A stretch of 50,819 nucleotides of DNA from Gammaproteobacteria bacterium (GCA_036986175.1 BTRB01000001.1:1-50819); one strand, 5' to 3'. Counted from the first letter of the stretch, positions 16,372 to 35,704 are shown. Program-made: numbers and translations. Notes: a model not told the origin generated them from the letters alone.

Positions 16372-16791
16372 ATAGCAACTCTCTCCACGCTAAACAGAGC
16401 ACGTTAAAAAATATCAATTAACAGGCTAAATCAAGCCGTACGCAGGTAACAAATTATCAAGTGAACAGCACGGCAACTCCTATTAGAATCGTTCGAAGAT
16501 TAGAGAAGGTGTGGCAATGGGGCACAAAAAAATCACTGAAAATCGGCTTTCAAGAGCATTTTTTGTTAGAATCAGTCCTGCTATGTCAGTCTAGAAGGTA
16601 AATTTGTGGCACAAAAAACAGGTAATTTACAATTAATTAACGATTTCTTTTGTCAGTTCTGCGAGAATTACCTGCTATAAGCATGGGTGGGGAAAAACCA
16701 GGCTTGTGAATGTTGACGGACCAGCAGCCTATCAAACAAAAGCAGAGGCCATTTGGCTAATGAAAAATTGCTACGAACCAGCGAGTTGCAT
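16372..16791. promoter_or_regulatory. Long AT-rich non-coding leader upstream of the lipid operon
   Basis: About 420 bp without a credible ORF and visibly more AT-rich than the flanks. It contains an imperfect direct repeat AGAAGGT-N8/9-GGCACAAAAAA. The exact 11-mer GGCACAAAAAA lies at 16521-16531 and 16608-16618. TTAGAATC occurs twice. An inverted repeat CAGGTAATT / AATTACCTG lies at about 16620 and 16665. A 9-nt partial match TTAACAGGC to the GTTAACAGGCCCT motif lies at 16418-16426. Confidence 0.4.
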
Positions 16792-18561
16792 ATGAATACC
16801 GTGCAACCAACGCCCACTAACGAATCATTGCCGGTAAAAATTGCGGGATACACCAATCTTGTAGATGTGCTTGAGTATGCTGCGCAGGGCGACACCGGTT
16901 ATAACTTCTATGATGGCCGCGGTCGTCTTGGAGACGTACTGTCCTATGCAGATTTGCGTGACCAGGCAAAGGTGCTGGCGCGAAAATTGCTCGGCATGGG
17001 TTGTGAGCGCGGTGCGCGGGTCGGTATTATTGCCGAAACCGAGCCGATGTTTCATCGTTTCTTTTTTGCCTGCCAGTATGCTGGCTTGATCCCCGTTGCT
17101 TTGCCGGCCGGCATTCAACTTGGAGCACACGGCGCGTATGTCGGTCAGGTGCGGCGTATGTTGAAAAGCTGTGGTGCATCAATCGTCGTTGCGCCGGATA
17201 CGCACTCTGGTTTTATGGCGGAGGCCGTGCAAGGTCTTGATTTACTGATGGCTGGTAAGCAGGAAGATTTTGATGCGTTGCCAGAGGCAGTAGTGGAATT
17301 TGTACCACTCGGCGCAGATGATCCAGCTTATCTGCAATATACCTCGGGTAGCACCAGTTTCCCGCGTGGGGTGGAGATAACCCAGCAAACCGTATTGAAC
17401 AACCTGGTGGAGATTGCCCTTTACGGACTGAAGTTGACTGCCGAGGACCGTTTTGTATCGTGGTTGCCTTTTTATCATGACATGGGCCTGGTCGGTTTTA
17501 TCCTGGTTCCGTTGATTGGCCAGTTATCCGTGGATTATCTGGGTTCACGTACATTTGCGATGCGTCCAAGACTTTGGCTGAAAATCCTGTCTGATAACAA
17601 GGGTACGATTTCCTCAGCCCCGACATTCGGTTACGCATTGTGTGCAAAGCGTTTGCGGGCTTCAGACGTTGAAACCTATGACCTCAGTAACTGGCGGGCT
17701 GCGTGTGTAGGCGCCGAGAGAATCAGCCCGGAACCTCTGCAGGAATTTGCAGAAATCCTGCAGCCCAGTGGCTTTGATCAGAATGCGTTTGTTGCTTGCT
17801 ACGGCATGGCCGAATGTGTGCTGGCCACCAGTTTCGCACCGTTGGGGGGAGGGCTGAAAGTCGATGTGGTGGACAGGAGTTTGATGGCTGCTACAGGTGA
17901 AGCCAAACCTTCTGACGGAGATATGCTTTCCACTTCACACTATGTTGATTGCGGCAAGCTTTTACCCGGTTTTGAATTTGCAATTATCAATGATGATGGC
18001 GATATACTGGAAGATCGGCACTGCGGCCATATCTTTCTAAAGGGCTCCAGTGTGATGCGCGGATACTACAACGATGAAGAATCCACACGTAAAGTCCTGT
18101 CTGAGGATGGCTGGTTGAATACCGGTGATATTGGGTATCGCATTGGCGATCACCTGGTCATTACCTCCCGTAGCAAGGATGTCATTATCATCAAGGGGCG
18201 TAATATCTGGCCCTATGACCTCGAAGTGCTGGCCCAGCAGACCGATGGTGTCAAGCTCGGGGGCGTGGCGGCGTTTTCAGTAACTGCCGATGGTGAGGAA
18301 GAACAGGCCATACTCGTGGTAGAAACCAAGGAAAGGGATTTACAAAAGCGCCGGCATATCATTGAAGATATCAGTCGCTCCATTCACGCTCATTTTGGAA
18401 TTAGTGTACTGATTGATCTGACCCGGCGTGGGACACTGCCAAGGACGTCTTCCGGTAAGCTTTCCAGATCCCAATCCAAGCAGGATTATCTGGCACGCCA
18501 GACCTTGCAGAAAGTAGAACAGTCAGCGGCCAGGGCCAAGTCCGACAGGCTGACGGCCTGA
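16792..18561 (+). CDS. Fatty acyl-AMP ligase (FAAL) / acyl-ACP synthetase-like adenylating enzyme
   Basis: AMP-binding core motifs are of FAAL flavour: YLQYTSGSTSFPRGVEITQ, WLPFYHDMGLVGF, NTGDIGY, SRSKDVIIIKGRNIWPYDLE. The ORF-track start is TTG 16753; ATG 16792 (MNTVQPT) is more likely. The stop TGA 18559-18561 lies 1 nt before the next gene. Confidence 0.8.
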   Translation: MNTVQPTPTNESLPVKIAGYTNLVDVLEYAAQGDTGYNFYDGRGRLGDVLSYADLRDQAKVLARKLLGMGCERGARVGIIAETEPMFHRFFFACQYAGLIPVALPAGIQLGAHGAYVGQVRRMLKSCGASIVVAPDTHSGFMAEAVQGLDLLMAGKQEDFDALPEAVVEFVPLGADDPAYLQYTSGSTSFPRGVEITQQTVLNNLVEIALYGLKLTAEDRFVSWLPFYHDMGLVGFILVPLIGQLSVDYLGSRTFAMRPRLWLKILSDNKGTISSAPTFGYALCAKRLRASDVETYDLSNWRAACVGAERISPEPLQEFAEILQPSGFDQNAFVACYGMAECVLATSFAPLGGGLKVDVVDRSLMAATGEAKPSDGDMLSTSHYVDCGKLLPGFEFAIINDDGDILEDRHCGHIFLKGSSVMRGYYNDEESTRKVLSEDGWLNTGDIGYRIGDHLVITSRSKDVIIIKGRNIWPYDLEVLAQQTDGVKLGGVAAFSVTADGEEEQAILVVETKERDLQKRRHIIEDISRSIHAHFGISVLIDLTRRGTLPRTSSGKLSRSQSKQDYLARQTLQKVEQSAARAKSDRLTA

Positions 18562-18562
18562 C

Positions 18563-19489
18563 TTGCCGGTACCTCTTTCATCCGTATTCATCACCGGGGC
18601 AACCGGTTTTATCGGGCAACACCTTGTCACCACCCTGCTGGAACAGGGCTATACCGTGCGGGCAATGGTCCGCCCGGGGAAAGTCACGGATGAACGGATA
18701 CCTGCTCTTTGTGAGCAGTTCCCCGTCGGTTTGACCGATGTAGATGGCCTGACAGCCATCGTAGGTGGTTGCGATGCAGTCATTTATTGCGCAGGCAGCG
18801 TCAGGGGCAGAAACCCGGATGATTTTTCAATTGCTAACATCAACGGTGTCAGGGCGATGCTGGAAGCCCTGGGGCGTGTGCCTGAGGCACCGCCATTGCT
18901 GCTGGTATCATCATTGGCCGCGGGTCGCCCACAACTTTCAGACTATTCCTTCAGCAAGCATGCAGGTGAACAGCTGTTGCTGGACAGGCCTTCGCTGGCC
19001 TGGACCATACTTCGCCCGCCAGCTGTTTATGGACCAGGCGACAGGGAAATGCTGCCGGTATTGAAAATGGCGCGCCGCGGTCTGTTGGTTTATGCCGGCC
19101 CGGCTGATCAACGCTTGTCGCTGCTACACGTCGATGATCTTGCCAGGGCAGTGCTAGCCTGGTTGGCGTCATGGCAAAAATGCCTGCACAAGATATACGC
19201 CATTGATGATGGCAGACCCAACGGCTACGACTGGCCGGCCATTGGGGAAGCGGTAAGCGCCGGAAAATATCGGCAACTTAAATTACCCCGCTTATTGCTG
19301 GATGTCACAGCAAGATCAAACTTGATGGTTGCGAAATTAATGGGCTACCGACCCATGCTGACACCAGGGAAAGTCAGGGAGCTGGTGCAAACGGATTGGC
19401 TGGGTGACAACAGTGATTTCACGGCGGCTACGGGATGGAAACCGAATCTGGATTTGCGCGCCGGGGCAGAGCAACTATTTGGAGCATGA
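18563..19489 (+). CDS. NAD(P)-dependent epimerase/dehydratase-family SDR (CerR-like candidate 3-keto reductase)
   Basis: 308-aa ORF with a TTG start 1 nt after the FAAL stop. It has the Rossmann motif VFITGATGFIGQHLV and catalytic YSFSK (YxxxK). It holds the same position between acyl-ACP synthetase and ACP as Caulobacter CerR, as I recall. Confidence 0.65.
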   Translation: MPVPLSSVFITGATGFIGQHLVTTLLEQGYTVRAMVRPGKVTDERIPALCEQFPVGLTDVDGLTAIVGGCDAVIYCAGSVRGRNPDDFSIANINGVRAMLEALGRVPEAPPLLLVSSLAAGRPQLSDYSFSKHAGEQLLLDRPSLAWTILRPPAVYGPGDREMLPVLKMARRGLLVYAGPADQRLSLLHVDDLARAVLAWLASWQKCLHKIYAIDDGRPNGYDWPAIGEAVSAGKYRQLKLPRLLLDVTARSNLMVAKLMGYRPMLTPGKVRELVQTDWLGDNSDFTAATGWKPNLDLRAGAEQLFGA

Positions 19490-19491
19490 AC

Positions 19492-19521: not shown

Positions 19522-19626
19522 CACAAAATTGACGTGCATTCCTGTCAACCTGCGCTACAATTCCCCAACCTGCAGGTTCCAAGCCTGCGGCTCCAAAACT
19601 GTAGATAGGTCCTGGTGGAGGATTTT

Positions 19627-19899
19627 TTGAAATTATCGACTGAAGCAGTGGGTAGCAAGCTTGCGGAGATCCTGGCTCAATACCTCAGGAAAAACTGGAT
19701 TGACACACCGGCGATCGAGCGGGAAATTACACCGGCGACCAATATGGTGTCTGATTTGCAACTGGATTCATTCCAGGTAATGGAGTTCATGCTGGAGGTG
19801 GAAGATCATTACGATATCGCTATTGACCTCGAAAGCTTGTCCAATGTCCAGACCATTCTAGACCTTGCCGGCGTGGTCATCGCTGTGCATAACGAATGA
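19627..19899 (+). CDS. Acyl carrier protein (phosphopantetheine attachment site)
   Basis: 90-aa ORF from TTG 19627, preceded by GGAGG (19617-19621); the ORF-track start is GTG 19615. The PP-binding motif is DLQLDSFQVMEFMLEVE, with Ser in LDS. The stop at 19897-19899 lies 4 nt before the next ATG. Confidence 0.8.
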   Translation: MKLSTEAVGSKLAEILAQYLRKNWIDTPAIEREITPATNMVSDLQLDSFQVMEFMLEVEDHYDIAIDLESLSNVQTILDLAGVVIAVHNE

Positions 19900-19903
19900 C
19901 GAT

Positions 19904-21073: not shown

Positions 21074-21077
21074 GAGG

Positions 21078-21094
21078 GAGCAGCTTTGCTGCTC
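21078..21094 (+). terminator. Short hairpin just after the spt stop
   Basis: GAGCAGC-TTT-GCTGCTC has a 7-bp stem and begins 5 nt after TAG 21071-21073. There is no U-tract, so it is weak as an intrinsic terminator. Confidence 0.3.
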
Positions 21095-21096
21095 GC

Positions 21097-21469
21097 GATT
21101 CTATAAGATTTGCACCATCCGAACGCGGCGACACGGGGTACCTGCCCTCTGAGACACGCATGAACCCATCCATGGGGCTCGGGGCCTGCTCCCGGCAGGC
21201 CACGGTCCCAGAGGGCAGGTACCCCATATCCCCGCTTGGTGTTGGGGATTCTGATGGGGTGGGCAATTGCAAGCAGCGGGCCCGCTTCTCCAACACGAGT
21301 CCGCCCCCAACAAGAATCTACTGAGCCCAGCGGGGATACGGGGGGTGTACTCCCTGAGACCGTGGCCTGCCGGGAGCAGGCCCCGAGCCTACAGGACGTA
21401 CTCGTGGCGTGTCTCTGGGGGTACACCCCCCGTGTCCCCGCAGCAGGATGGTGCAAATCTTATAGAATC
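21097..21469. repeat. 373-bp nested giant imperfect palindrome (MITE-like or structured-RNA-like element)
   Basis: Perfect 24-bp terminal inverted repeats are GATTCTATAAGATTTGCACCATCC (21097-21120) and its reverse complement (21446-21469). A perfect 32-bp internal inverted repeat is GGCTCGGGGCCTGCTCCCGGCAGGCCACGGTC (21176-21207) and its reverse complement (21358-21389). The centre is the 12-bp palindrome AGCGGGCCCGCT (21275-21286). Each arm is itself a hairpin. Confidence 0.85.
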
Positions 21470-21487
21470 GTGTCCAGCGGAACTGAT

Positions 21488-21551
21488 GGCCCAGGCCATG
21501 CTCCCCACCGGTTCCCGGTGGCCCAGGCCAGCTTCTCGACCGGTTCCCGGT
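21488..21551. repeat. Tandem direct repeat, 2 x 32 bp
   Basis: GGCCCAGGCCATGCTCCCCACCGGTTCCCGGT (21488-21519) is followed directly by GGCCCAGGCCAGCTTCTCGACCGGTTCCCGGT (21520-21551). Each unit ends in the small hairpin ACCGG-TTC-CCGGT. The second is followed by the T-rich TTACCTTCTTTC. Confidence 0.8.
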
Positions 21552-21586
21552 CTTACCTTCTTTCACCATCTCTCACTTCCTCCCTC

Positions 21587-22864: not shown

Positions 22865-23835
22865 CAGCGGAAAGCCCCCTGCCGGTGGAGCTTCCACAAC
22901 AATGGCCAAGCGAAGATCAAAGGGTGTTTAAGCTGCCGGGCACTTGGCTCGATATAAATACCGGTATGCCGTTCAACTTTCCATAGCAGGTACTGTAGTG
23001 GTCCATTGAAGGTGAACGCAGCTTTGAAAAGCCGTAGCATGGATAACAACTTGCCCTGCACACGGCGTAGCCACCAGCTAACTGAGGAGAATTTCCTGGC
23101 GACGGTACTGCTTTGGTTGCAATACACATCGTGCTGCGTGGTGGTTGACAGGTTTGCGCCGCTCCCGGCCAGCGACCGGGCAATCCCGTCATACCAGGCA
23201 GGATTAAAGTCGTATAGTGATTCAGCACGATTGCTGCTTTCCGTACGCAGCTCACAACGGTAGGTCTGTGAAAGGCCACTGGTCCATAATTCCCGGCTAC
23301 TGAACCGGTCGGGCAGGGAGGGTATCACGTGTTTCACAAAAGTAGCTGAGGCTGTTCCAAATGCATTGACCAAGGCCATTTTGGTTGCCTCGTCACGGGC
23401 AAACAGTACCTCGCAGGGCTGTGCAAAACGTGCCCAGAAATAGGAGTGAAAATCATGCGCCATGGCGTGGCAAAACCGGTCCAGCGTCAGCAGTGCATAT
23501 TTTGCCCGCATATCACTACTTTCTGTACCGGGTCCTGTTACCTTGTGGTGGATGTGGTACACATTGGGTGGAAGCAAGCGGCACATCCATCCTTGCCAGG
23601 GAGAATCCAGCGTACGGTAATCCTCCACCAGCACATAGAAATCCAGCATGGTGTCGCGCTTGCCGCGCAGCCAGGAGCCGTAGACCAGTATGGCCAGCAA
23701 AGCATCACCGTGTTGCTGTTTTATTTTGCTGAGAAGAGGTTCGAGACTGGCATAATCGTCCAGGTTTGCCTGGCACCCGTGGTCCACGCCGCTACCCAGT
23801 TCCACGGGTTTTTGTGGCTTATCATTTGGGTGCAT
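22864..23835 (-). CDS. Tam41/Mmp37-like nucleotidyltransferase (candidate lipid-phosphate cytidylyltransferase)
   Basis: The NTase signature is ILVYGSWLRGKRDTMLDFYVLV (GS ... DxD). Downstream blocks resemble my memory of the Tam41/Mmp37 profile: NVYHI, AKYALLTLDRF, YFWARFAQPCEVLF, SRELWTSGLSQTYRCELR. The start is uncertain: ATG 23835 overlaps the upstream gene by 14 nt, and other in-frame ATGs occur up to 23904. Confidence 0.5.
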   Translation of the reverse strand: MHPNDKPQKPVELGSGVDHGCQANLDDYASLEPLLSKIKQQHGDALLAILVYGSWLRGKRDTMLDFYVLVEDYRTLDSPWQGWMCRLLPPNVYHIHHKVTGPGTESSDMRAKYALLTLDRFCHAMAHDFHSYFWARFAQPCEVLFARDEATKMALVNAFGTASATFVKHVIPSLPDRFSSRELWTSGLSQTYRCELRTESSNRAESLYDFNPAWYDGIARSLAGSGANLSTTTQHDVYCNQSSTVARKFSSVSWWLRRVQGKLLSMLRLFKAAFTFNGPLQYLLWKVERHTGIYIEPSARQLKHPLIFAWPLLWKLHRQGAFR

Positions 23836-25051
23836 AAGCCCCCCGGGTGGCGCCGAAAATGGCATAAGCCCTGGCGTTCGGACCGGTTGCGACATCATCT
23901 TCACTCAGCCACGAGGTCAACGGCCCCCGCGTTAATCTGACCACAAGCGCAAACAACAGACGGAGCACAAGAATCACTGTGGTAAAAACAGTCCAGAACG
24001 TGACGGCAACAAAGCCCCAGTCAGGTCTGGCAATAACGATGCTCAGGGTCAGCAGGATCAGATTGGGATTGCGCCTCGCGGTGATCAGCCTGAACCATGC
24101 ATCGGAAGGACGCCAGGTGAAAATACTACAGTTTCCAAGCAGTGGAAAAATCCCTTCAACAACCCTTCCGACGATGTAAGCAACAATGATAAGCCAGTAC
24201 ATCTGACCCTGGTCAAAACCTATCACTGGTTGAAAATCTTGCAGTGACATACCCCAGTAAATGTACCAGAACGGTGGGTGAAACAGGTCAATGGCATGGT
24301 CGAACAGATGGCCAAACTTGCTGGATTTAATGGTTACACGGGCCAGTTTTCCATCAACGGTGTCGAGAAACGTCATCAACCAACCAGCCAGCAAGCCCCA
24401 GCCGTACTGTCCTTTCCAGAAGAAGTAAGCAGCAGCGATAACCAGCAATAGTCCCGTGCTGGTGACCATATTTGGCGTTATACCGGTATTTGCACACACA
24501 TGTACCATGCGTTTGGCCGGGCGGGGCCAGACAAATTTGGTGACCAGGTCGGTGATTCCACGGTAAGCATTGCCGTACAACTTATTTTCAAGTTCGGTTT
24601 TTCGTTGCGCAGAAATGGTTTCCAGCAAGGGTGTTGTCGACCTGCGCAGGCTTTCATCAAAGGCCGCCATGTCGCCGGGATGAATCCTCTGCAGGCCATG
24701 GGGCATCTCCCGGCTTCGTTCACGGAAATACGCCAGCATCGCGGGCAGGCGATGGCTATCGATAAAAGCTGCTGCAGCAGAATTATCACCCGGATGTGAC
24801 AACACGGCATCCGGGTGGGCTAAAACACCACTGAGGGTGCGGTTCTCGAACAGAAAATTTCCATTGATCAACAATATTCGGCTGTCTTGGGGAATGTTGT
24901 CTTTGTCTATATCATCCAGCCATCGGATGTCGCTCAAATCACCGCTGGATCCCATGCTGATCTCCAGCAACTGACGTTGCAGGCGGCGGGTAGAATCCAG
25001 TCCCCAAAGACGGGTGGAGGAGAGTTCAGAAACAGCTGCGTAGACGGTCAT
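23822..25051 (-). CDS. CDP-alcohol phosphatidyltransferase-family membrane enzyme with a ~190-aa cytoplasmic N-terminal extension
   Basis: It has a perfect family motif DxxDGxxARx8GxxxDxxxD: FLDTVDGKLARVTIKSSKFGHLFDHAIDLF. Several TM segments follow. The N-terminal domain (VYAAVSELSSTRLWGL...) looks like a degenerate NTP-transferase fold lacking the GxGxR loop. Confidence 0.85.
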   Translation of the reverse strand: MTVYAAVSELSSTRLWGLDSTRRLQRQLLEISMGSSGDLSDIRWLDDIDKDNIPQDSRILLINGNFLFENRTLSGVLAHPDAVLSHPGDNSAAAAFIDSHRLPAMLAYFRERSREMPHGLQRIHPGDMAAFDESLRRSTTPLLETISAQRKTELENKLYGNAYRGITDLVTKFVWPRPAKRMVHVCANTGITPNMVTSTGLLLVIAAAYFFWKGQYGWGLLAGWLMTFLDTVDGKLARVTIKSSKFGHLFDHAIDLFHPPFWYIYWGMSLQDFQPVIGFDQGQMYWLIIVAYIVGRVVEGIFPLLGNCSIFTWRPSDAWFRLITARRNPNLILLTLSIVIARPDWGFVAVTFWTVFTTVILVLRLLFALVVRLTRGPLTSWLSEDDVATGPNARAYAIFGATRGAYAPK

Positions 25052-25149: not shown

Positions 25150-26022
25150 ATGCGTCTGATTCACCTGACCGATCCACATCTCAGCAACCTTGACGGGCTA
25201 AAGCTCTCAGCGTTATGGGGCAAGCGCTGGTCCGGTTATGTCTCGTGGCGCAAGAATCGGCAAAAGAAATACCTGCCGGGTGTGCTGGAAAAACTGTGTG
25301 CCGCTGTGAAAGCTGAAAATGCGGATCAGATCCTGTTGACCGGGGACCTGGTCCAAATCGGCCTGGAAAGCGAGATTGGGCAGGCAGCGGAGTGGCTTGC
25401 GGATCTCGGCTCTGCAGACCGGGTTATGCTGGTGCCGGGTAACCATGATGTATATGCCCGGGGAAGCGCTGCAGTGGTTTGTGATTCCTGGGCTGAATAT
25501 CTGTTTCATGGCGGGCAGCCCGGCCACTTCCCGGTGCTGCGAAAACTGGGAAAGCTTAGTCTGATCGGGCTGTCTACCGCCTGTGCCAGCCCGCTGTTCA
25601 TGGCCACTGGAAAACTCGATACGGGTCAGCTTAAAGAACTGGCCCGGTTGCTGGAGACCGCCGCCGCTGAGCAACAACTGACCTGTTTACTGATCCATCA
25701 CCCACCGTTGCCGCGAATGACCAAGTGGCGCAAGGCCCTTGCCAATGCACAGGCTTTGCAGGATGTCCTCGAACGCTTTGTGCCGCCGTTGATTTTTCAC
25801 GGCCACCTGCACCATAACCGTGAGCAGCAATGGGGGAGTTCACGCATTTTTTGTACCGCTGCAGCATCCAGTGTCAGTGATGCTTCATACCGTGTGATCG
25901 ATATTGAAGACGCTGGTGAATGTTGGTCCTTACACATGGCACTGAAGTCAATTGCTGTTGAAAGCGCGGGTGGGGTGGAGTTTCCGGCGGTTGATGAGCA
26001 GAATTGGTTGGTACCCAAATAA
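25150..26022 (+). CDS. Calcineurin-like metallophosphoesterase (CpdA/GpdQ-like)
   Basis: All the canonical blocks are present: LIHLTDPHL, LLTGDLVQIG, LVPGNHD, LIHHPP, FHGHLHHN. Confidence 0.8.
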   Translation: MRLIHLTDPHLSNLDGLKLSALWGKRWSGYVSWRKNRQKKYLPGVLEKLCAAVKAENADQILLTGDLVQIGLESEIGQAAEWLADLGSADRVMLVPGNHDVYARGSAAVVCDSWAEYLFHGGQPGHFPVLRKLGKLSLIGLSTACASPLFMATGKLDTGQLKELARLLETAAAEQQLTCLLIHHPPLPRMTKWRKALANAQALQDVLERFVPPLIFHGHLHHNREQQWGSSRIFCTAAASSVSDASYRVIDIEDAGECWSLHMALKSIAVESAGGVEFPAVDEQNWLVPK

Positions 26023-26040: not shown

Positions 26041-27114
26041 TCACAAGCTCCGGTGGCGAATCGCTGCTATCGCCAGCGCGAGCAGGATAAATGGTGGTGT
26101 AAGGATGACCAGTGAAGGGTTCATACCCAATATTCCGGCCAGTTGGCCACTCAGCTGCTGCACCAGGTAAAAACCGATTCCTATCAAACCCCCAAGCATA
26201 ACCCGCTGGCTTGCGGAAACCGACCGGACTGAATTGAGCACGAAAGGCAGCGCCAACAAAGCCATTGCCAACAGGCTGGGCAACAGGCTGATCTGCTGCC
26301 AGAGAACAATCTCATATTCATGGGTATCAAGTTGATTGCGTCTGAGGTTCGCAATGGTTCTGACCAGGTCATTGGGTGCCAACGCCTCAAGCGGCAACAC
26401 CAGGACAGATGCTTGTTCGGCGGACAGCAGGCCTTTCCATAACATGCTTTCCTGCGTCGTCTCCTGTACGGTCGTTTTCTGCAGTTCGCTAAGCACCACG
26501 CCGTTTAACAGCCAGTTATTATCGCCGGCATAATCTGCACTGGATGCCTGTGTTAATTGTGATAAACGGCCTTTGGAATCGGCGGTATAGATTTCGATAT
26601 CAGCCAACGTGCGGTCAAACCTCACTTCATTGACACGGATGAAAAAAGAGCCGTTGCGGGTCCAGAATGCACCTGTACTGCCGGGGCCTTTTTCCGTGCC
26701 CTGCAGGGACTTGCCACGCAGCTGTGCAGCTTCTCTTTCAAACCTGGGCACGACAGAAAACTGCAGGATTGTGATAGAAATACCGAGAAACACCGCCAGC
26801 ACTGTTACGGTTTGCGCAATACGCCGCTTGGACAGGCCGCTGGTGCGAATAGCAATCAGCTCGCGACTATTGGCCATGGCACCCAAACCCAATAACCCGC
26901 CCAGCAGTGCGGTGACCGGCAGCAGTTCAACAATGCGTTTGGGTGTGGTCAAAAAAACGACCATAAAGGCGTCCGGCAAGTTGAAGTTGCCGCTGCCGAC
27001 TTGCTCCAGTTCTTCAGCAAGTGCCATGAAGCTGAACAAGGCGAGTAATAGCAACAAAACCGGTAGGATGCCGGCCAGGAACTGCTGCATGATGTAGCGG
27101 TCAATCTTCAGCAT
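26041..27114 (-). CDS. lptG: LPS export ABC transporter permease LptG
   Basis: 357 aa from ATG 27114 (MLKIDRYIMQQFLAGILP), of the YjgP/YjgQ family. It overlaps the lptF stop by 14 nt. The ORF-track extension to 27291 is unlikely to be translated. Confidence 0.85.
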   Translation of the reverse strand: MLKIDRYIMQQFLAGILPVLLLLLALFSFMALAEELEQVGSGNFNLPDAFMVVFLTTPKRIVELLPVTALLGGLLGLGAMANSRELIAIRTSGLSKRRIAQTVTVLAVFLGISITILQFSVVPRFEREAAQLRGKSLQGTEKGPGSTGAFWTRNGSFFIRVNEVRFDRTLADIEIYTADSKGRLSQLTQASSADYAGDNNWLLNGVVLSELQKTTVQETTQESMLWKGLLSAEQASVLVLPLEALAPNDLVRTIANLRRNQLDTHEYEIVLWQQISLLPSLLAMALLALPFVLNSVRSVSASQRVMLGGLIGIGFYLVQQLSGQLAGILGMNPSLVILTPPFILLALAIAAIRHRSL

Positions 27115-28174
27115 GATCCTTCCTGCTCTTCCTGCGGATGACCGGAAAGTACAGCCCGGCCACGAGCAGGCCAAGCAATCCGGACACCCACCAGATAGAG
27201 TCGGCGCTGCCCTGTTCCACCCAGCTGCGGCTGACATCCAGCAAGTTGAAGTAAACGGCATATATCCCAAGCGCCAACAACATCTTGGCATAACGCCCCT
27301 GCCGCGGGCGACTGCGGCTCAGCGGAATGGCCGCCAACGCCAGTAACAGGGCAGACAGGGGCGTGGATATACGCCATTGAAATTCTGCCCGCTCTTCTGC
27401 GGCGGGAGATCGCCTTAATGCGCTGGTTGGCGCCGATTTGACCTTGTAGCCCGGTGCTTGTGGGGTTTGTACGGGTATCCACAAAATAAAAGAGCCGAAT
27501 TGTGCCGAAAAGTCAGTGCCATCCCGAACCTTCTTGAACACCTGTGCATCAATGAGTTGCAGGCTGTGAAACTCCGGTTTGGCAAAATAGTTGAAAACAC
27601 CCTTCGAGGCTGTTATTACCTGCAGGTCGTTACCCTTGCGCGTACGGATAAAGATACCGTCCAGATCACTGCCGTTTTCAGCAATGTTTTCAATGAAAAC
27701 CGTACGCTCGCTCTCGCTGAATGTGTAAAACCGCGCTTCCCGAATGCGGCCAGTTTCCGCAGAGACCTCGGCGGCGGCCTTGACCTTGTACGATTGCGCA
27801 TATGCCCACGGCCGCACCCAGCCCGATAACAATGCAACCACGACGGCGACTACAAGCGACAGACGCATAAGCGGGCGCAGCAGGCGGGCCTCGGAGATAC
27901 CGCCTGCACGCATGGCGTAGATTTCTGAATCGGTGTATAAGCGTCCCAGGCCGGTCATGACGGCCAGGAACAGGCTGAGTGGCAGCAATACGTCGAGTGA
28001 TATCAGGGATTTGAGAACAGTCAGTTGTGCGACCTCACCGACTTGTAAAAGGCCCGCATCGGCATCTACAAGAAACCGGCTGAGGCTGTAGGTGATGAAA
28101 ATAACCAGCAGCGCTGTGCAAATCACCAGCAATGGTTGCACAACCTCCCTGATCAGGTAACGGTCAATAATCAT
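27101..28174 (-). CDS. lptF: LPS export ABC transporter permease LptF
   Basis: 357-aa ORF starting MIIDRYLIREVVQPLLVICTALLVIF, of the YjgP/YjgQ family. It sits directly upstream of lptG as in E. coli. Confidence 0.85.
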   Translation of the reverse strand: MIIDRYLIREVVQPLLVICTALLVIFITYSLSRFLVDADAGLLQVGEVAQLTVLKSLISLDVLLPLSLFLAVMTGLGRLYTDSEIYAMRAGGISEARLLRPLMRLSLVVAVVVALLSGWVRPWAYAQSYKVKAAAEVSAETGRIREARFYTFSESERTVFIENIAENGSDLDGIFIRTRKGNDLQVITASKGVFNYFAKPEFHSLQLIDAQVFKKVRDGTDFSAQFGSFILWIPVQTPQAPGYKVKSAPTSALRRSPAAEERAEFQWRISTPLSALLLALAAIPLSRSRPRQGRYAKMLLALGIYAVYFNLLDVSRSWVEQGSADSIWWVSGLLGLLVAGLYFPVIRRKSRKDHAED

Positions 28175-28265: not shown

Positions 28266-28760
28266 ATGCTAAAAACACTCCTTCGTTGTCAAATTGTACT
28301 ACTTGCCGTGATGGCCCCTCCCGCCGGTGCATCATCGCCGGCAAACCTCGTCATCGAAACGGTCAGTATCAGCGCAGATGAAGCTTACGAGGATATTCAG
28401 CCCGGTATCCTGCATTTTAACGGTAATTTCACTATGCATAGTCGCGACTGGCAACTGGAATCCGTGCACGCAACAGTTTATGGCCAGCCTGACAGACCGG
28501 ACGAAGTATATCTTAAAGGTTCGCCCGCGCGTTTTCTGATCAACCGCAATCAGGGTGATGGGCAAAGCACGGTGGAAGCTGCGGCTCCGGCGGTGGAATA
28601 TCAGCGTTCCACAAATATGCTGAAATTATCCGGTGGCGCTGTGCTCAAGCTGGACCGTGAAGAAATCAGGAGTGAGGTAATCGAATATAATATCAGCACT
28701 GACCGCTACCGGGCCGCCGGCGCTGATGGGGTGATAATTGAAGTCCCGCCCAGAAACTGA
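28266..28760 (+). CDS. Secreted OstA/LptA-fold protein (second LptA-like paralogue)
   Basis: 164 aa from ATG 28266 with a signal peptide MLKTLLRCQIVLLAVMAPPAGA. The mature part aligns by eye with E. coli LptA block by block: ISADEA...LHFNGNFTM, VYLKGSPARFL, AAPAVEYQRSTNMLKLSGGAVL, IRSEVIEYNI. It is divergent from lptF. The canonical lptA is at 41347-42006. Confidence 0.6.
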   Translation: MLKTLLRCQIVLLAVMAPPAGASSPANLVIETVSISADEAYEDIQPGILHFNGNFTMHSRDWQLESVHATVYGQPDRPDEVYLKGSPARFLINRNQGDGQSTVEAAAPAVEYQRSTNMLKLSGGAVLKLDREEIRSEVIEYNISTDRYRAAGADGVIIEVPPRN

Positions 28761-29566: not shown

Positions 29567-29585
29567 ATTCTGCAAAATGCAGAAT
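29567..29585. promoter_or_regulatory. Perfect 19-bp palindrome, candidate operator
   Basis: ATTCTGCA-AAA-TGCAGAAT lies in the 134-bp divergent region between the NTP-transferase (start 29513, minus strand) and the GMC oxidoreductase (start 29648, plus strand). Confidence 0.4.
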
Positions 29586-29647
29586 TGATATACTCACGAA
29601 TGCGTCTGTGCTTTTGTTCAAGGCCCTGGAAACGCAAGGACCCGAGT

Positions 29648-31252
29648 ATGTTGATCGATCTGGAAAAATTCGCTCAGGATATGATGCTTGATGCAGAGGT
29701 TTGCATTGTTGGCGCTGGCGCTGCGGGTGTAGCTCTTGCCCGGGACCTGATGCATGCCGGTCGTGATATATGCCTGCTGGAAGGCGGAGGCATGGACTAT
29801 GAAGACGCCACCCAATCGTTGTTTGACGGCAAAAATATCGGTATGGAATATTACGATCTGGACCATGCCCGCTTGCGTTTTTTCGGCGGCACAACCAATA
29901 TCTGGGGCGGCCGCAACATTCCACTGGATCCAATCGATTTTGAGAAACGTGATTGGGTGCCACACAGTGGCTGGCCAATCACATTCGATGATCTGCAGGC
30001 TTATTACCGTATTGCACACAATTCGCTTGAACTGGGTGAGTTTGACTACGAGGCCGGCAATTGGCAGAAGCTGGGACTGCAACCCATTGGATTTGACCCG
30101 CAAGAGATCACAACGCGGTTTTGGCGCTTTGATGATCTTGCCGAGCGCTTCAACAGTCGCCGCAGTGATGACCTGATCAAATCTGAGAATGTGCGTATTG
30201 TCCTGCATGCCAATACGGTCGGTTTGCAGGCGGCTGAGAATGCTGCAAGCGTCACCCGCCTGGATGCGACTACCCTGCAGGGCAGAAAGTTGCAGGTTAC
30301 CGCGCGTCATTTTGTGCTCGCCTGCGGTGCGATTGAAAATGCCCGTTTGCTGCTGGCTTCCAATACGGTTGAGGCTTCTGGAATCGGCAATCAGCACGAT
30401 CAGCTTGGGCGTTATTTCATGGAGCACCCCCATGGCAGAGTTGCCCATATCGAAACAGAAGATCCGGCAGCCTTCTGGGCATTGTATCGCAAGCGTTATC
30501 CGGCAACTGATGTGCCGGTTGCGCCGGCACTGGTATTGCCGCCGTCTTTACAGAAACGCCTCGGCATTCTTAACAGTGCAGCCACATTCAAACTTCAGAA
30601 AGACCCGGCCAGGGGTGCCACAGTAAGCAAACGGGTGTACCTGAATCTGAAACACAGTTTGTCACCATCTCGATCCGGAAGGCGCTTGTGGCATGCCTGG
30701 CGGGGTACGCAAGATTGGTTGCAGCGCCACGTATCAATGCCCCTGTTGCGTTTTGGTACCAGGGTAAACCGTATGGGCCTGTACGTGATTGCCCGCGCTG
30801 AGCAGGCGCCTAACCCGCACAGCCGGGTATGCCTTTCTAGTGAAATGGATGCACTTGGCTACCCCAGGGCAGACCTGGACTGGCAGCTTTGTGACCTGGA
30901 TAAGGAGACCATGTTGCAGTTTGGCAAAACGCTGGAGCGGGAGTTTGACCGGCTTGGCTTGGGCAAGGTAACAACTTACCAGTGGCTGGAGGACGGTACA
31001 CCTGAGTGGCCGGTTGATGCCAGTGTGGGTAATCACCCCATTGGCGGCTATCACCACATGGGTACAACCCGCATGAGTAACTCCCCGAAGACCGGCGTTG
31101 TGGATGCCAACTGCACAGTCCATGGCTACCAGAACCTGCATATCGCCGGTAGCTCGGTGTTTACAACCGGTGGCTGGGCTAATCCTACTTTAACGCTGCT
31201 GGCGTTGACGCACAGGCTCGGGGATCATCTGAACAGTTTATTGACCCGATAA
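29648..31252 (+). CDS. GMC-family FAD-dependent oxidoreductase
   Basis: 534 aa from ATG 29648. The FAD fingerprint is VCIVGAGAAGVALA. The C-terminal GMC blocks are HPIGGYHHMGTTRMS, VVDANCTVHGYQNLHIAGSSVFTTGGWANPTLT. Confidence 0.8.
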   Translation: MLIDLEKFAQDMMLDAEVCIVGAGAAGVALARDLMHAGRDICLLEGGGMDYEDATQSLFDGKNIGMEYYDLDHARLRFFGGTTNIWGGRNIPLDPIDFEKRDWVPHSGWPITFDDLQAYYRIAHNSLELGEFDYEAGNWQKLGLQPIGFDPQEITTRFWRFDDLAERFNSRRSDDLIKSENVRIVLHANTVGLQAAENAASVTRLDATTLQGRKLQVTARHFVLACGAIENARLLLASNTVEASGIGNQHDQLGRYFMEHPHGRVAHIETEDPAAFWALYRKRYPATDVPVAPALVLPPSLQKRLGILNSAATFKLQKDPARGATVSKRVYLNLKHSLSPSRSGRRLWHAWRGTQDWLQRHVSMPLLRFGTRVNRMGLYVIARAEQAPNPHSRVCLSSEMDALGYPRADLDWQLCDLDKETMLQFGKTLEREFDRLGLGKVTTYQWLEDGTPEWPVDASVGNHPIGGYHHMGTTRMSNSPKTGVVDANCTVHGYQNLHIAGSSVFTTGGWANPTLTLLALTHRLGDHLNSLLTR

Positions 31253-32044: not shown

Positions 32045-32056
32045 GCGATAGTCGGG

Positions 32057-33202
32057 CTAAAGGTCTTTCTCATACATCCGATAGCGTTTTGAAATTTCGC
32101 CACCGATGCTTTCAATAATATTCCTGGTGGCCTGGTTATGATCCAGTACCCAGGACATTTCAGCGCGCTCGAGTCCTTTGGCCGTACCGGCATCCATTGC
32201 ATTCTTGATGACCATGTAAGCAAGTGCCGGCCCAAAACGCGTGTTCTGGTACTTTTGCCTGACACCCATCAGGGCTACCCTGGCTGATTTTGGAAATTTT
32301 ATTTTCAGACGCCATAGCAGCCTGGCCCAACCGAATGGTAACAGGCGTCCGTTGAGGTCTGCGATGGCTTCGTTAATATTGGGGATCAACACAACAAAGG
32401 CGACAGCTTCACCATCGAGCTCAGCGATCTGAATAAACTCATCGGGTAACAGCATCATCAGCTCCTTGCCAATCGCTGCAAACTCTGCGCGCGTAAACGG
32501 TACAAAATTCCAGTTGTTTTCCCACGCGTCGTTGAAAATACTGCGCATGACTTCCAGTTCGGCTTTTTTTTGTTTGCGCTGCAAAGGTCTGACGTTGACG
32601 CGGTCGGCACTTCTCTTTAGCAATGCTTGCATTACCCTGGGAATAGTAAGGGTCGTAGAGTCCAGTTCATAGGCGAGCAGGTCCTGTGACGGTTGATACC
32701 CACACTGCTCAATAGCTTTACCGTAATAAGGTAGTGAATGCGGTGTCATGACATAAGGTGGGGAATCAAACCCTTCGATCAGAATGCCGATCTCCTGGTT
32801 AATGCTAAGGTTGAACGGGCCAACAACCTGACGCATACCCCGGTCCCGCAGCCAGCTTTCAGCGGCATTAAACAGGGCTTTGAAAACCTCATTGTCATCG
32901 GTTGCTTCAAGCATGCCGAAAAAACCGGTTTTGCTGTCGTACTGTTGTTGATGCAGTTCATCGACCTGCGCAGAAATACGCCCGACAGGCTTGCCATCCC
33001 GCCAGGCAACCCAGGCCTGCCATTCGGCGTGTTCGAAATAGGGATGCTTGCTTGAGAAAGCTTCTTTGCGCTCGGCGATCAGTGGCGGGACCCAGTTAGG
33101 ATCATTTTGGTAAAGTTCCCAGGGAACCCGGATAAAGGTATCCATTGCTTTCTTCCCGGAAACCTCGGTGATTTTCACAGCCGTATCAAGATGGTTATTC
33201 AC
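32057..33202 (-). CDS. Large GNAT-like N-acyltransferase (candidate bacterial ceramide synthase, speculative)
   Basis: 381-aa soluble ORF. The N-terminal block FIRVPWELYQNDPNWVPPLIAERKEAF...WVAWRDGKPVGRISAQVD matches a widespread ~380-aa acyl-CoA N-acyltransferase-like family as I recall it. It lies 26 nt after the GT and 12 nt before the NTP-transferase gene. Confidence 0.4.
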   Translation of the reverse strand: MNNHLDTAVKITEVSGKKAMDTFIRVPWELYQNDPNWVPPLIAERKEAFSSKHPYFEHAEWQAWVAWRDGKPVGRISAQVDELHQQQYDSKTGFFGMLEATDDNEVFKALFNAAESWLRDRGMRQVVGPFNLSINQEIGILIEGFDSPPYVMTPHSLPYYGKAIEQCGYQPSQDLLAYELDSTTLTIPRVMQALLKRSADRVNVRPLQRKQKKAELEVMRSIFNDAWENNWNFVPFTRAEFAAIGKELMMLLPDEFIQIAELDGEAVAFVVLIPNINEAIADLNGRLLPFGWARLLWRLKIKFPKSARVALMGVRQKYQNTRFGPALAYMVIKNAMDAGTAKGLERAEMSWVLDHNQATRNIIESIGGEISKRYRMYEKDL

Positions 33203-33228
33203 TAATATTTTCCCGTGTGGTTTTGCAA

Positions 33229-35679
33229 TTATTTGCTTGTCAGTCGGATCGCAGAAAATACGCCGAGATAGCGTTTGGTAATGCTTTTCCAGTCCATTTC
33301 GGAGACAAATTCCAGTGCAGCGGCGGATAATCGATCACGGTGTTCCCTGGATTCCGCCAGGTCAATGATTTCATTCAGCATGTTAACCCAGTCATTACTG
33401 ATGATTGCTTCACGCTGATTGACAACTGGAATACCCTCCATGCCTTTGGAGGTACTGACGACGGGTAAGCCAGCAGCAAAACAATCGATAATTTTCAACC
33501 TGGTACCTCCACCGTCACGTAACGGAATGACTGCCATATCACAGGCTTTCAACCAGGGACCAACCTCTTCAACGCTGCCGGTGAAGTGAATGTTGGGATG
33601 CAGGCCGTCAGCGGGCGGATTGCGGCCTATCGCGATGACGTGGAACGGCAGATTAGCACTTTCGAGTTGCGGCAGCAGTGTTTCTGCGAATACCTTTAGT
33701 GCATCGCGGTTAGGCGGGTAGGAAAATGTACCATGGAAAGCCATCAGCACGGCATTATCCGGCAGTCCGAATTCTTCTCTGAGGCCGTCTTTTGCAGGCA
33801 GGGTGTAAGGCACAGGATCAAAGCCGTGAGGTATGGTGTTCAGCAATTCCGGCTTGACACCGTCGTTGAGCAGTTGCTGGCGGTCGTTGTCCGACACACA
33901 GATGACGGCGTCGGAACGATTGCACAGATCAATTTCAATAGCTTGAAAATTTCGAAACTGCGCATTGGTCAGTTCGGCCACCTGTGCCTTGAGCCGCGTG
34001 TATTCGACATTGTGCTCCACCAGCACCACCGCAGCATTCAGAATCTCCCTCGCCTCAATACAGGGCTTTGCATAGGCGGGAAATTCAGCCTGCAAGATAC
34101 CGGCGTTCAGCTTCCTGCCAGCGTACAGGCAATGCCAGAAGAAACTGTTATCGGTCAGGGGCAGGTAAAGAAAAGCATTGCTTTCCGGTAATTCCTTACT
34201 TAAATGCAGACTGTGGGTCAGCGAACGCGGCAGGCTTAACAGGCGCAACCAGAAAGGTAGCCGGCAGCGTTGTTTTTGGCCGTCTTCGAACAACCACCAG
34301 TGTTTCCGGTCATCGCTGACGATACCAACTTTACGGCCGTGCTGTGATAGCGCCCGGGCGGTTTCAATGATCTTGACTGCAGCACCATGGTCGTCAGGAA
34401 ACAGGTCGCTGCGGGTAATGATCAGGACATTGTCACCGGGCCGGGAGTGAAAAATCCGGCTGAGGCAGAGACGCCTGAGTAGCCTGGCCTGCCGTTTCAG
34501 CCGTTTTGGCCAGGGTGGTTTAACAAGAACCACTGGCGCAGGCTGCTGTAGTATTGCGGGCAATTGGGGGGCTTTTGCCGGTAGTTCAAGCCAGTCAAGT
34601 AGTGGTGCGGCCGCGATATCGGGGTTCAGCGCCTCTTCTACCAGGCGAATTGCATTTTCTGAACGGCTTTTCCATTCCCCGGGCATCGTCATGATGCTGC
34701 GCAACAAATCGGTAAGCTCTTCCGGTCCGCGGACAGTCCAGCCAGCCTTATATTGTTTAACCAGTCCGGCAATTGGCAGGTAATCATTGCATATCAACGG
34801 TAAACCATGGCGCAGAAACTCCAGTGAACGGAAAGACTGGCTGTATTTCCTTTCTATATTCCAATGTGCAACTTCAAGGCCAATATGGGCAGATTCCAGC
34901 AAAAAGCGGCTGAAAAGGGAATAGGCTGCAAGCCCCTGGGTTTGATTGCCTGGTGCCGTCTTCCACAGGTTTTCCTGTTGCAGCTCATTTGGTTGGGAAG
35001 CGTCTTCATGCCAGCGATATTGCCCGCCAAACAGTACCAGGCGGGGCGCTTCCGAAGCCAGATCCTGTTGCATGGAATGGATGGCCTGCCAATATTCATC
35101 AGATTTTCGCCATGGCCAGCTGACGCCACCGCTGACCAGGGTCCAGCCATCGGATTCCGGGTCAGACTCAGGTTTGCCGGCGGGCTTTGCGGCTAAAGGC
35201 ACGACCAGTACAGGTTCACATCCGCGCAAGTCAAAGCCTGCCTGCAGCAGGGTAAACCAGAGCAGGTCTCTTTGCACCTCGTTGCCGGTCAGCAGTAAAT
35301 CGCACTTTGACAGGTTATTCTGCAATCGTTGCAGTTCTGAACGGACTTGCTCCGGATGCTCATAAAGGGCTTCCAACGGCCTGGGTGCAACAAAATCAAC
35401 GATTACCGGTTGTGGCAATTCAAACGGGAGTAATTCCAGCAGTTCCCAATATGCAACCAGGATGGCGTCCGGACGTTGCCTGGTAATTATTGCCTGTAAC
35501 TCATCCCGGTTGCGAAAGGCATCTTTGTGCGGGCTGTGTTGCGTATCCGGCCACGTTTGCGATAGTGTATGCCCCCCACGGCGCAGCGCGCCATCAAGCT
35601 GGGCAGTGCGAATGGCATTGCCGGTTGCGACTGCGTTTGGCGTTAGCGGCGGCTCCTGTGTGATCAGAAGTATCAGCAT
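33229..35679 (-). CDS. Two-domain glycosyltransferase (C-terminal GT4/GT-B)
   Basis: 816-aa ORF. The C-terminal half has GT4 features (NVLIITRSDLFPDDHGAAVKIIETARAL, GGGTRLKIIDCFAAGLPVVSTSKGMEGI). The N-terminal ~400 aa is GT-B-like but unassigned. Confidence 0.7.
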   Translation of the reverse strand: MLILLITQEPPLTPNAVATGNAIRTAQLDGALRRGGHTLSQTWPDTQHSPHKDAFRNRDELQAIITRQRPDAILVAYWELLELLPFELPQPVIVDFVAPRPLEALYEHPEQVRSELQRLQNNLSKCDLLLTGNEVQRDLLWFTLLQAGFDLRGCEPVLVVPLAAKPAGKPESDPESDGWTLVSGGVSWPWRKSDEYWQAIHSMQQDLASEAPRLVLFGGQYRWHEDASQPNELQQENLWKTAPGNQTQGLAAYSLFSRFLLESAHIGLEVAHWNIERKYSQSFRSLEFLRHGLPLICNDYLPIAGLVKQYKAGWTVRGPEELTDLLRSIMTMPGEWKSRSENAIRLVEEALNPDIAAAPLLDWLELPAKAPQLPAILQQPAPVVLVKPPWPKRLKRQARLLRRLCLSRIFHSRPGDNVLIITRSDLFPDDHGAAVKIIETARALSQHGRKVGIVSDDRKHWWLFEDGQKQRCRLPFWLRLLSLPRSLTHSLHLSKELPESNAFLYLPLTDNSFFWHCLYAGRKLNAGILQAEFPAYAKPCIEAREILNAAVVLVEHNVEYTRLKAQVAELTNAQFRNFQAIEIDLCNRSDAVICVSDNDRQQLLNDGVKPELLNTIPHGFDPVPYTLPAKDGLREEFGLPDNAVLMAFHGTFSYPPNRDALKVFAETLLPQLESANLPFHVIAIGRNPPADGLHPNIHFTGSVEEVGPWLKACDMAVIPLRDGGGTRLKIIDCFAAGLPVVSTSKGMEGIPVVNQREAIISNDWVNMLNEIIDLAESREHRDRLSAAALEFVSEMDWKSITKRYLGVFSAIRLTSK

Positions 35680-35685
35680 GCTGGC

Positions 35686-35704
35686 AAGTGTTAACAGGCC
35701 CTAA
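35686..35704 (+). repeat. 19-nt exact repeat AAGTGTTAACAGGCCCTAA, copy 2
   Basis: It is identical to 19503-19521. It fills almost the whole 21-nt spacer between the mgtE stop and the ATG of the 816-aa GT (35679). The mgtE stop (CTA at 35701-35703, TAG on the minus strand) lies inside the repeat. Confidence 0.9.

Follow-up and report, generated by a model that had tools for sequence, protein, structure and literature searches.

The periplasmic step of bacterial sphingolipid transport is listed as unknown in a recent study of the Caulobacter export genes by Uchendu, Isom and Klein (bioRxiv 10.64898/2026.04.12.717747), and the question taken up here is which proteins could serve that step in a gammaproteobacterial locus. 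The DNA analysed, hereafter the window, is one stretch of genome of 50.8 kb from a Gammaproteobacteria bacterium (GCA_036986175.1, BTRB01000001.1:1-50819), in which a 19-kb block of genes between tsaB and mgtE combines a ceramide-synthesis set with head-group genes, a candidate flippase, lptF and lptG, and a gene for a secreted paralogue of LptA, here called LptA2. In its overall type the locus is known, being a gammaproteobacterial version of the Caulobacter-type cluster, and LptA2 is its one apparently new feature. Judged from sequence comparison and analogy, the block probably serves to make and export a sphingolipid in an uncultured gammaproteobacterium of Xanthomonadales/Lysobacterales type; its design is homologous to that of the Caulobacter CPG2 locus, with LptA2 as the carrier.

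LptC2, LptF2, LptG2 and a flippase have been described in the Caulobacter sphingolipid locus, where LptC2, LptF2, LptG2 and CC_1166 were proposed to move phosphosphingolipids, and two gammaproteobacteria, A. vinelandii and P. luteola, were listed as having orthologous loci (Olea-Ozuna et al., PLoS Pathog 2024, PMC11324152). The later preprint reports that lptF2, lptG2 and lptC2 are deletable only in strains lacking spt or cpgB, which do not produce the anionic sphingolipid, that LptF2 and LptG2 co-purify and both bind the single LptB, and that sphingolipid loci of alpha- and gammaproteobacteria commonly contain lptF2 and lptG2, lptC2 seeming to be confined to Caulobacter; some sphingolipid producers have a single lptFG pair, and no duplicate of LptA, LptD or LptE was found in any sphingolipid locus (bioRxiv 10.64898/2026.04.12.717747). 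These two studies (2024, 2026) have overtaken two statements of the original prediction, which was made from the sequence of the window: that the block is a candidate new system, since Caulobacter-type sphingolipid loci with lpt paralogues had already been described, and that there is no established route to the outer membrane for bacterial sphingolipids. The second LptA-like protein, flagged there as part of the strongest lead, still appears new. When the literature was searched for sphingolipid loci with an LptA paralogue, and for sphingolipids in Wenzhouxiangella or marine-sediment Gammaproteobacteria, only the two Caulobacter papers surfaced, and no description of such a gene was found.

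Ceramide synthesis genes of the block

Gene calls were based on an open reading frame (ORF) map, Pfam and NCBIfam profile scans and direct reading of the gene junctions (Table 1). All the gene families named in the original prediction are present, with coordinates either exact or off by a few codons. The alpha-oxoamine synthase of the block passes the NCBIfam equivalog model for serine palmitoyltransferase (Spt) and stays under the cut-offs of the BioF, Kbl, HemA and CqsA-type synthase models. The outcome named in the original prediction as refuting it, an affiliation with BioF, Kbl or CqsA instead of Spt, was thus not observed. For comparison, the spt locus of E. coli (strain L26), in which Spt is annotated, was retrieved via a distant DNA search. 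Identities of the window proteins to those of the E. coli locus are 57% for Spt, 49% for the GNAT-type acyltransferase (against YghO), 44% for the fatty acyl-AMP ligase (FAAL) and 36% for the short-chain dehydrogenase/reductase (SDR).

The ceramide-synthesis role of the five genes is taken from Padilla-Gomez et al. (PMC9386255), who list yghO as a homologue of Caulobacter CC_1154, the N-acyltransferase bCerS, describe the FAAL-type enzyme and the acyl carrier protein (ACP) as a dedicated acyl-ACP system serving Spt, and report the ACP gene directly upstream of spt in all rhodobacterial spt loci. In the window, the ACP gene ends 4 nt ahead of spt, with FAAL in the same operon, and the SDR gene starts with TTG 1 nt past the FAAL stop. 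The translational coupling that had been claimed for this plus-strand operon thus stands for the FAAL/SDR and ACP/Spt pairs and fails between SDR and ACP, which are 125 nt apart. Because Spt, the YghO-type GNAT, FAAL, ACP and SDR were all matched, predicted counterparts of all five dihydroceramide genes (AasR, AcpR, Spt, CerR and bCerS) are present in the block. By analogy, FAAL would load a fatty acid on the dedicated ACP and Spt would condense the acyl-ACP with serine; N-acylation by the YghO/bCerS-type GNAT and reduction of the 3-keto group by the SDR would then yield dihydroceramide.

It is very improbable that the alpha-oxoamine synthase operon makes a non-sphingolipid instead (a CAI-1-type signal, for example, or an aminolipid or sulfonolipid), with the envelope genes unrelated to it. 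Alpha-oxoamine synthases are hard to assign from sequence, and the BioF and Kbl models too give scores for the present family, but Spt is the only equivalog passed, and the dedicated ACP, the FAAL, the CerR-type SDR and the bCerS-type GNAT are all there, homologous to the set studied in E. coli and Caulobacter.

The LptA-like protein encoded beside lptF

The LptA2 gene diverges from lptF across 91 bp, its likely start being the ATG at 28266. The product scores 50.8 bits with TIGR03002, under the 71.7 cut-off that the canonical LptA of the same window clears (Table 1). The two proteins are 26% identical over 94 residues, and LptC gave no significant match to LptA2; PF06835, the LptC domain, was not matched by LptA2 in the Pfam scan. 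When family profiles were compared with hhalign, LptA2 was related to canonical LptA with 96.5% probability and to the LptC of the window with 0.7%. The AlphaFold2 (AF2) model of LptA2 (pLDDT 85) is a beta-jellyroll, for which the best folds are E. coli LptA (2r1a; E 8e-9, target-normalised TM 0.84) and P. aeruginosa LptH, the fold matches of LptC and of the LptD N-terminal domain being 3-4 orders of magnitude weaker. Alignments for this and the other structure models were built from proteins found by database searches.

All LptA2 orthologues with a readable N-terminus begin with a short basic segment followed by a short hydrophobic stretch; most of them carry an Ala-x-Ala-type site and there is no conserved lipobox. 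In the window protein, the hydrophobic stretch lies under the transmembrane threshold of a hydropathy scan. Because of these signal-type N-termini and the missing lipobox, LptA2 is predicted to be secreted and soluble, unlike the anchored LptC. By its profiles, its N-terminus and its modelled fold, then, LptA2 is classed as LptA-like rather than LptC-like, and as secreted. With canonical LptA (E. coli YhbN, P. aeruginosa LptH) it has in common the beta-jellyroll, a cleavable signal peptide and about 140 mature residues. It differs in its low identity (22-26%), in falling under the equivalog cut-off and in lying beside lptF in a sphingolipid locus, not in an lptC-lptA-lptB string; the window carries a canonical LptA besides LptA2. 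The family is small: a word-indexed search returned 221 matches, and in an exhaustive search of representatives the number of clusters was 23 with E <= 1e-30 and 235 with E <= 1e-10.

LptA2 could represent an apparently unreported element of such loci and a candidate periplasmic carrier. The window and 30 further loci contradict the preprint's statement that duplicates are lacking, because an LptA paralogue lies beside lptF in each of them. A conserved secreted LptA paralogue provides a concrete candidate for the periplasmic sphingolipid step. A more specific role is put forward tentatively and at somewhat less than even likelihood, namely that LptA2 is a sphingolipid-dedicated periplasmic carrier or bridge which docks on LptF/LptG, in place of LptC or after it, and passes the phosphosphingolipid to LptD/E. 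If so, this clade would possess a second, partly separate Lpt conveyor, having only LptB and perhaps LptDE in common with lipopolysaccharide (LPS) export, and with LptA2 there would for the first time be a candidate for how bacterial sphingolipids are carried through the periplasm.

The loci of E. coli, A. vinelandii and P. luteola resemble the window in having FAAL-SDR-ACP-spt followed by convergent lptG-lptF, and a YghO-type bCerS, but unlike the window they are without an LptA-like gene. The E. coli spt locus has the order yghO, FAAL, SDR, ACP, spt, convergent lptG-lptF, a YtfJ-family gene, hypothetical gene(s) and a MOP gene (yghQ), and identities between window and E. coli locus range from 26 to 57%. 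At its far end (L004, 18250-22544), lptF is followed by the periplasmic YtfJ-family gene, the hypothetical gene(s), the MOP gene yghQ and the P-loop kinase-like yghS/yghT. The YtfJ protein is a candidate periplasmic partner in the E. coli lineage. Local profile searches of the E. coli locus, and of those loci that have no LptA2, brought up no weaker LptA-like ORF.

Conservation of the locus and the status of its lptFG pair

Scanning of species-representative genomes with an LptF alignment identified 16 loci, all of them in uncultured metagenome-assembled genomes (MAGs), labelled as Lysobacterales, Xanthomonadales, Wenzhouxiangellaceae or Gammaproteobacteria and in one case as Pseudomonadales (L020). 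Mapping of the window proteins showed that the block is conserved in 15 of the 16, which are close relatives, with some variable genes: the CDP-alcohol transferase and the flippase are missing in several relatives and the GT4 gene in one (L006), the Tam41-like gene being always kept. A metagenome scan with an Spt alignment added 80 more loci at 56-89% Spt identity. Non-redundant loci with enough flank were then classified by local profile searches, related contigs being covered to 10 kb on either side.

The arrangement of lptG-lptF with a divergent LptA-like ORF directly beside lptF was found in 31 loci, L020 included, and it holds at Spt identity down to 56%. Seven loci have an lptFG match without an LptA-like ORF. 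In three of these (L076, L080 and L084) the absence of LptA2 is genuine; their order is GNAT, MobA-like, LicC-like / LptF-LptG, and their gene families are the same as those tabulated for the loci of P. luteola and A. vinelandii in PMC11324152. In the remaining four (L015, L057, L063 and L093) the locus runs into a contig end or is apparently disrupted. Three further loci (L047, L073 and L082) have no lpt genes within about 7-10 kb. The loci bearing the LptA-like gene, which come from environmental metagenomes and MAGs, several of them marine or marine-sediment, constitute one clade in the Spt tree (drawn without printed bootstrap values). Nested inside this clade is the Spt of L047, a 112-kb metagenome contig which retains the same gene order (13484-15659) without lptG-lptF-lptA2 between the phosphoesterase and the LicC-like gene. 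Given the single Spt clade and this clean loss, the lpt-spt adjacency appears to be old and conserved, and lptG-lptF-lptA2 behave as a unit.

The gene arrangement is not due to chance, since 15 related genomes and dozens of metagenome contigs retain it. The adjacency of lptFG to the lipid genes, which might have been incidental, is not so: all close relatives have lptG-lptF placed with the spt operon on one side and the bCerS-type GNAT on the other. The broader proposal that the block encodes synthesis, decoration, flipping and Lpt-linked export of a sphingolipid-type outer-membrane lipid has likewise survived every test that was run on the sequences. Several observations weigh against it in its full form or against a second, dedicated lptFG copy. 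LptA2 is not universally needed, as the three loci with lptFG and without LptA2, and L047, make plain. LptF and LptG, a PF03739 permease pair whose genes overlap by 14 nt (27101-27114), both pass the NCBIfam equivalog models (TIGR04407 and TIGR04408). They resemble the canonical proteins of P. aeruginosa, Vibrio and Klebsiella at least as closely as they do E. coli LptF2/G2. For the window LptF, the score is 153 bits with P. aeruginosa LptF as against 145 bits with E. coli LptF2, which is not discriminating, and for the window LptG it is 160 bits with Vibrio LptG and 125 bits with E. coli LptG2; identities to the counterparts in the E. coli spt locus are 32% (LptF) and 26% (LptG). The deep nodes of the LptF and LptG trees described below have 16-60% support and are not decisive, the confidence of the Tam41-like model is only moderate, and a ceramide kinase gene is missing from the window, as discussed in the next section.

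These points bear on a different explanation, according to which lptF-lptG are the only LPS exporter of the genome, relocated into the sphingolipid locus and perhaps exporting the sphingolipid as well, with LptA2 as an accessory LPS bridge. The similarity scores and equivalog matches just given fit it, as do the single-lptFG sphingolipid producers noted in the 2026 preprint (bioRxiv 10.64898/2026.04.12.717747); dual LPS/sphingolipid export has been suggested for single-lptFG Bacteroidetes and Myxococcus. This explanation is nevertheless considered unlikely. The module is placed between spt and bCerS, is flanked on either side by head-group genes and travels with them across two taxonomic labels, and L047 has lost exactly the three-gene module, a loss easier to accept if the genes are accessory than if they encode the sole essential exporter.

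Neighbour-joining (NJ) trees of LptF and LptG with 200 bootstraps comprised the proteins of the window family and of L020, LptF2/G2 of E. coli and, copied from PDB alignments, the canonical sequences of P. aeruginosa, Vibrio and Klebsiella. The window family and L020 group together (96% bootstrap for LptF, 90% for LptG) apart from the canonical proteins, which form clades at 99-100%; the window proteins are not joined by E. coli LptF2/G2 in these trees. The LptF of L020, a locus labelled Pseudomonadales, thus falls into the window clade, away from that of P. aeruginosa. Second lptFG copies encoded in the locus are present in all of E. coli, A. vinelandii, P. luteola and Caulobacter. A dedicated lptFG copy is favoured as the likelier reading over a sole copy because the pair is embedded in the locus, because of the L020 grouping, the clean loss in L047 and the precedents in the four organisms just named, and because it has an LptA-like partner.

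Among the loci with an LptA-like gene, L020 stands apart in its order (LptA-like / LptF-LptG-FAAL-SDR-ACP-Spt-hydroxylase) and has neighbours quite different from those of the window. At 2649-9462 and 16795-17388 it encodes a CMP-sugar-type cytidylyltransferase, an ELM1-like transferase, a 2OG-Fe(II) oxygenase, a sulfotransferase and a fatty-acid hydroxylase. This gene content hints at a different sphingolipid head group, possibly sulfated or glycosylated. In some relatives, a TonB-dependent receptor gene absent from the window lies between the LptA-like and LicC-like genes (L001, 16469-18916; L002, 16787-18763).

Head-group genes, gene map and minor features

The five ceramide genes are common to the window and the Caulobacter locus (CC_1152-CC_1168), and so are a CDP-alcohol phosphotransferase whose N-terminal domain is cytoplasmic, a flippase or flippase candidate of family PF01943 and an embedded LptF/LptG pair, with no lptB in either locus. 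A putative Tam41-like enzyme, predicted nucleotidyltransferases of LicC-like and MobA-like type and a phosphoesterase of calcineurin type are further likely counterparts. Seven window gene families correspond to CC_1159, CC_1161, CC_1152, CC_1153, CC_1158, CC_1166 and CC_1155/56; this Caulobacter-type correspondence, predicted from sequence, is one of family and architecture and not a measured identity. In Caulobacter, CC_1159 has a cytoplasmic domain at its N-terminus as well as a CDP-alcohol phosphotransferase domain, CC_1153 is MobA/CofC-like, CC_1158 a calcineurin-type phosphoesterase and CC_1166 a PF01943 flippase (PMC11324152); CC_1161 (CpgC) has a Tam41/Mmp37 InterPro domain and CC_1158 a calcineurin-like phosphoesterase domain printed as IPF004843 (S1 Text, PMC11324152). 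CC_1152 (CpgD) is a LicC-fold CTP:phosphoglycerate cytidylyltransferase with PF00483 and PF12804 (PMC13228409, PMC11324152). These seven are Caulobacter genes in which mutation abolishes or lowers CPG/CPG2 (for CC_1158 only partly) or for which a role in its transport was proposed (PMC11324152).

Four Caulobacter features are not in the window, namely the CpgB kinase, the HIT protein CC_1157, a CC_1167-type glycerophosphotransferase and the membrane-anchored LptC2 (PF06835); the HIT protein and LptC2 were looked for in the window and none was found. Conversely, the secreted LptA-like protein, the GMC oxidoreductase and the large GT4 of the window are not in the Caulobacter locus, and gene order is rearranged. 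The lack of a linked ceramide kinase, with the added GMC oxidoreductase and GT4, is the second difference from Caulobacter after LptA2. Profile scans of every window ORF gave no CpgB-type (DAGK/LCB5) ceramide kinase, a gene that the Pseudomonadaceae loci retain, and for this reason the head-group route would not be identical to that of Caulobacter. A ceramide kinase gene could lie elsewhere in the genome.

The opposing operon of the CDP-alcohol phosphotransferase, the 323-aa nucleotidyltransferase (NTase) and the MOP-type flippase candidate is as originally described, both of its junctions having been read directly: a 14-nt overlap, ATGCACCCAAATGA, covers the end of the phosphotransferase gene and the start of the NTase gene, and the MOP gene start overlaps the stop of the NTase gene (TGATG). 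In the phosphotransferase, PF01066 spans residues 192-296, preceded by a soluble region of about 190 aa; hydropathy places hydrophobic segments, taken as C-terminal membrane helices, from residue 284 on, and the nearest NCBIfam models are inositol-phosphate-type synthases. The NTase carries a conserved G-S...D-x-D nucleotidyltransferase motif. Its Tam41-like label finds no significant Pfam match, Tam41_Mmp37 (PF09139) being the sole family at a relaxed threshold and sub-threshold there (E 0.068), and is retained on fold similarity: the top folds for its AF2 model (pLDDT 70) are Tam41 6ig2, 6ig4 and 7ecd (E 2e-8 to 1e-6, TM 0.43-0.52). The flippase candidate is homologous to E. coli yghQ (127 bits). 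Among solved structures, the LicC-type cytidylyltransferase is best related to 6pd1, a phosphonate-type cytidylyltransferase fusion, and to the phosphocholine cytidylyltransferase LicC (1jyk), and the MobA-like nucleotidyltransferase to TTHA0179. The GMC oxidoreductase, a member of the family of choline dehydrogenase, shows no signal peptide, is apparently cytoplasmic and lies beside the LicC-like gene in relatives too.

The head group is probably a phospho-alcohol, to judge from these enzyme families. After dihydroceramide, the LicC-like cytidylyltransferase would make a CDP-activated head-group donor on the cytoplasmic face and the CDP-alcohol phosphotransferase would transfer the head group from it; the Tam41-like and MobA-like nucleotidyltransferases and the metallophosphoesterase may provide further activation and trimming, and the GMC oxidoreductase and GT4 may modify the head group. 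The MOP protein, or MsbA, would flip the lipid over the inner membrane, and LptF-LptG would extract it, powered by the single LptB encoded 12 kb away, the sole LptB-type ATPase gene seen in the window. The secreted LptA2 would take up the lipid on the periplasmic side and hand it towards LptD/E. For this organism, we infer the head-group chemistry and the steps of flipping, LptFG extraction and LptA2 handover by analogy, from the observed family and fold assignments and the linkage of the genes.

A variant of this scheme, different in its chemistry only, in which ceramide is made but the head group is not phosphoglycerate-like and CDP-choline, CDP-ethanolamine, CDP-inositol or a phosphonate donor serves to move it directly onto ceramide with no ceramide-1-phosphate, is rather doubtful. 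It would agree with the missing kinase, with the relationship of the LicC-like enzyme to 6pd1 and LicC, with the inositol-phosphate-type models nearest to the transferase and with the conserved position of the GMC oxidoreductase beside the cytidylyltransferase. However, the Tam41-like, MobA-like and phosphoesterase genes, taken as a set, resemble what the CPG2 pathway of Caulobacter employs and not a one-step transfer, the kinase could be encoded elsewhere in the genome, and the similarities are at the family level and define no substrate.

The transferase/flippase cassette varies in L001, L002, L013, L014, L016, L022, L038, L047, L050 and L056; the flippase occurs without the CDP-alcohol transferase in L022, L038 and L050, and the transferase without the flippase in L047 and L056-L060. 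Such variation suggests head-group diversity within one clade. Head-group cassettes are modular, the transferase and flippase coming and going, GMC and GT4 being added and no kinase being linked, and uncultured gammaproteobacterial lineages are among those with Caulobacter-type phosphosphingolipid gene sets.

Table 1. Genes of the block and its flanks, with positions counted from the first nucleotide of the window
Feature	Position	Strand	Profile match or remark
tsaB	ends 16371		left flank of block
FAAL, fatty acyl-AMP ligase	16792-18561	+	NF006624, 697 bits; AasR counterpart
SDR, NAD-dependent epimerase	18563-19489	+	PF01370; TTG start; CerR counterpart
ACP, dedicated, AcpR-like	19615-19899	+	PF00550
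Spt, serine palmitoyltransferase, 389 aa	19904-21073	+	NF047599, 600 bits (cut-off 500)
MOP/Wzx-type flippase candidate, 425 aa	21587-22864	-	PF01943, E 1.6e-5, below gathering score; multiple hydrophobic segments
Tam41-like nucleotidyltransferase, 323 aa	22864-23835	-	predicted fold; CpgC/CC_1161 counterpart
CDP-alcohol phosphotransferase	23822-25051	-	PF01066; CpgA/CC_1159 counterpart
Calcineurin-type metallophosphoesterase	25150-26022	+	PF00149; CC_1158 counterpart
LptG-family ABC permease	26041-27114	-	TIGR04408, 300 bits
LptF-family ABC permease	27101-28174	-	TIGR04407, 308 bits
LptA2, predicted secreted LptA paralogue, 164 aa	28266-28760	+	PF03968 (OstA/LptD_N)
LicC-type cytidylyltransferase, 242 aa	28785-29513	-	PF12804 and PF00483; CpgD/CC_1152 counterpart
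GMC-family FAD oxidoreductase	29585-31252	+	PF05199 and PF00732
MobA-like nucleotidyltransferase, 268 aa	31238-32044	-	PF12804 only; CC_1153 counterpart
GNAT-type N-acyltransferase, 381 aa	32057-33202	-	PF00583; bCerS/YghO homologue
GT4 glycosyltransferase, 816 aa, two-module	33229-35679	-	PF13692, PF13439, PF13524; block edge
mgtE	35701-37077		right flank of block
Canonical lptB-lptA-lptC	40626-42544	-	outside block; lptB 40626-41555, lptA 41347-42006, lptC 41981-42544, then kdsC; TIGR04406 369 bits, TIGR03002 101.9 bits, TIGR04409 99.9 bits

Outside the block the window consists of housekeeping genes, as seen in the profile scans, and the block is not distinguishable from the window by its GC content. 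The canonical string lptB-lptA-lptC-kdsC-kdsD lies past mgtE, rapZ, ptsN, hpf and rpoN, and lptB starts about 4.9 kb past the block, in line with the distance of about 5 kb given for this cluster in the original prediction.

On the left side, a 420-bp spacer alone separates tsaB from the FAAL gene in the window. At this place (L003, 5886-6527), some relatives have a LysE-family exporter gene, and L003 has a fatty-acid hydroxylase gene in addition. The convergent spt and MOP genes are separated by a 513-bp spacer (21074-21586), a nested imperfect palindrome with arms at 21081-21159/21407-21485 and 21176-21259/21306-21389, each 77% complementary, and with two 31-nt hairpins (87-90%). A search of Rfam gave no credible match for this spacer, and its degenerate hairpin-arm motif matches nowhere else in the window. 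In L005, the closest relative, only about 86 bp lie between the spt and MOP positions, and because of this the palindromic spacer reads as an insertion specific to this genome, which by its structure looks like a miniature inverted-repeat transposable element (MITE).

Upstream of the block and outside it, a gene beside that for PBP1B (6301-11028) encodes a 1575-aa multi-domain glycosyltransferase with GT4, GT2 and GT4 modules; it is conserved in relatives, the L001 version having 1476 aa.

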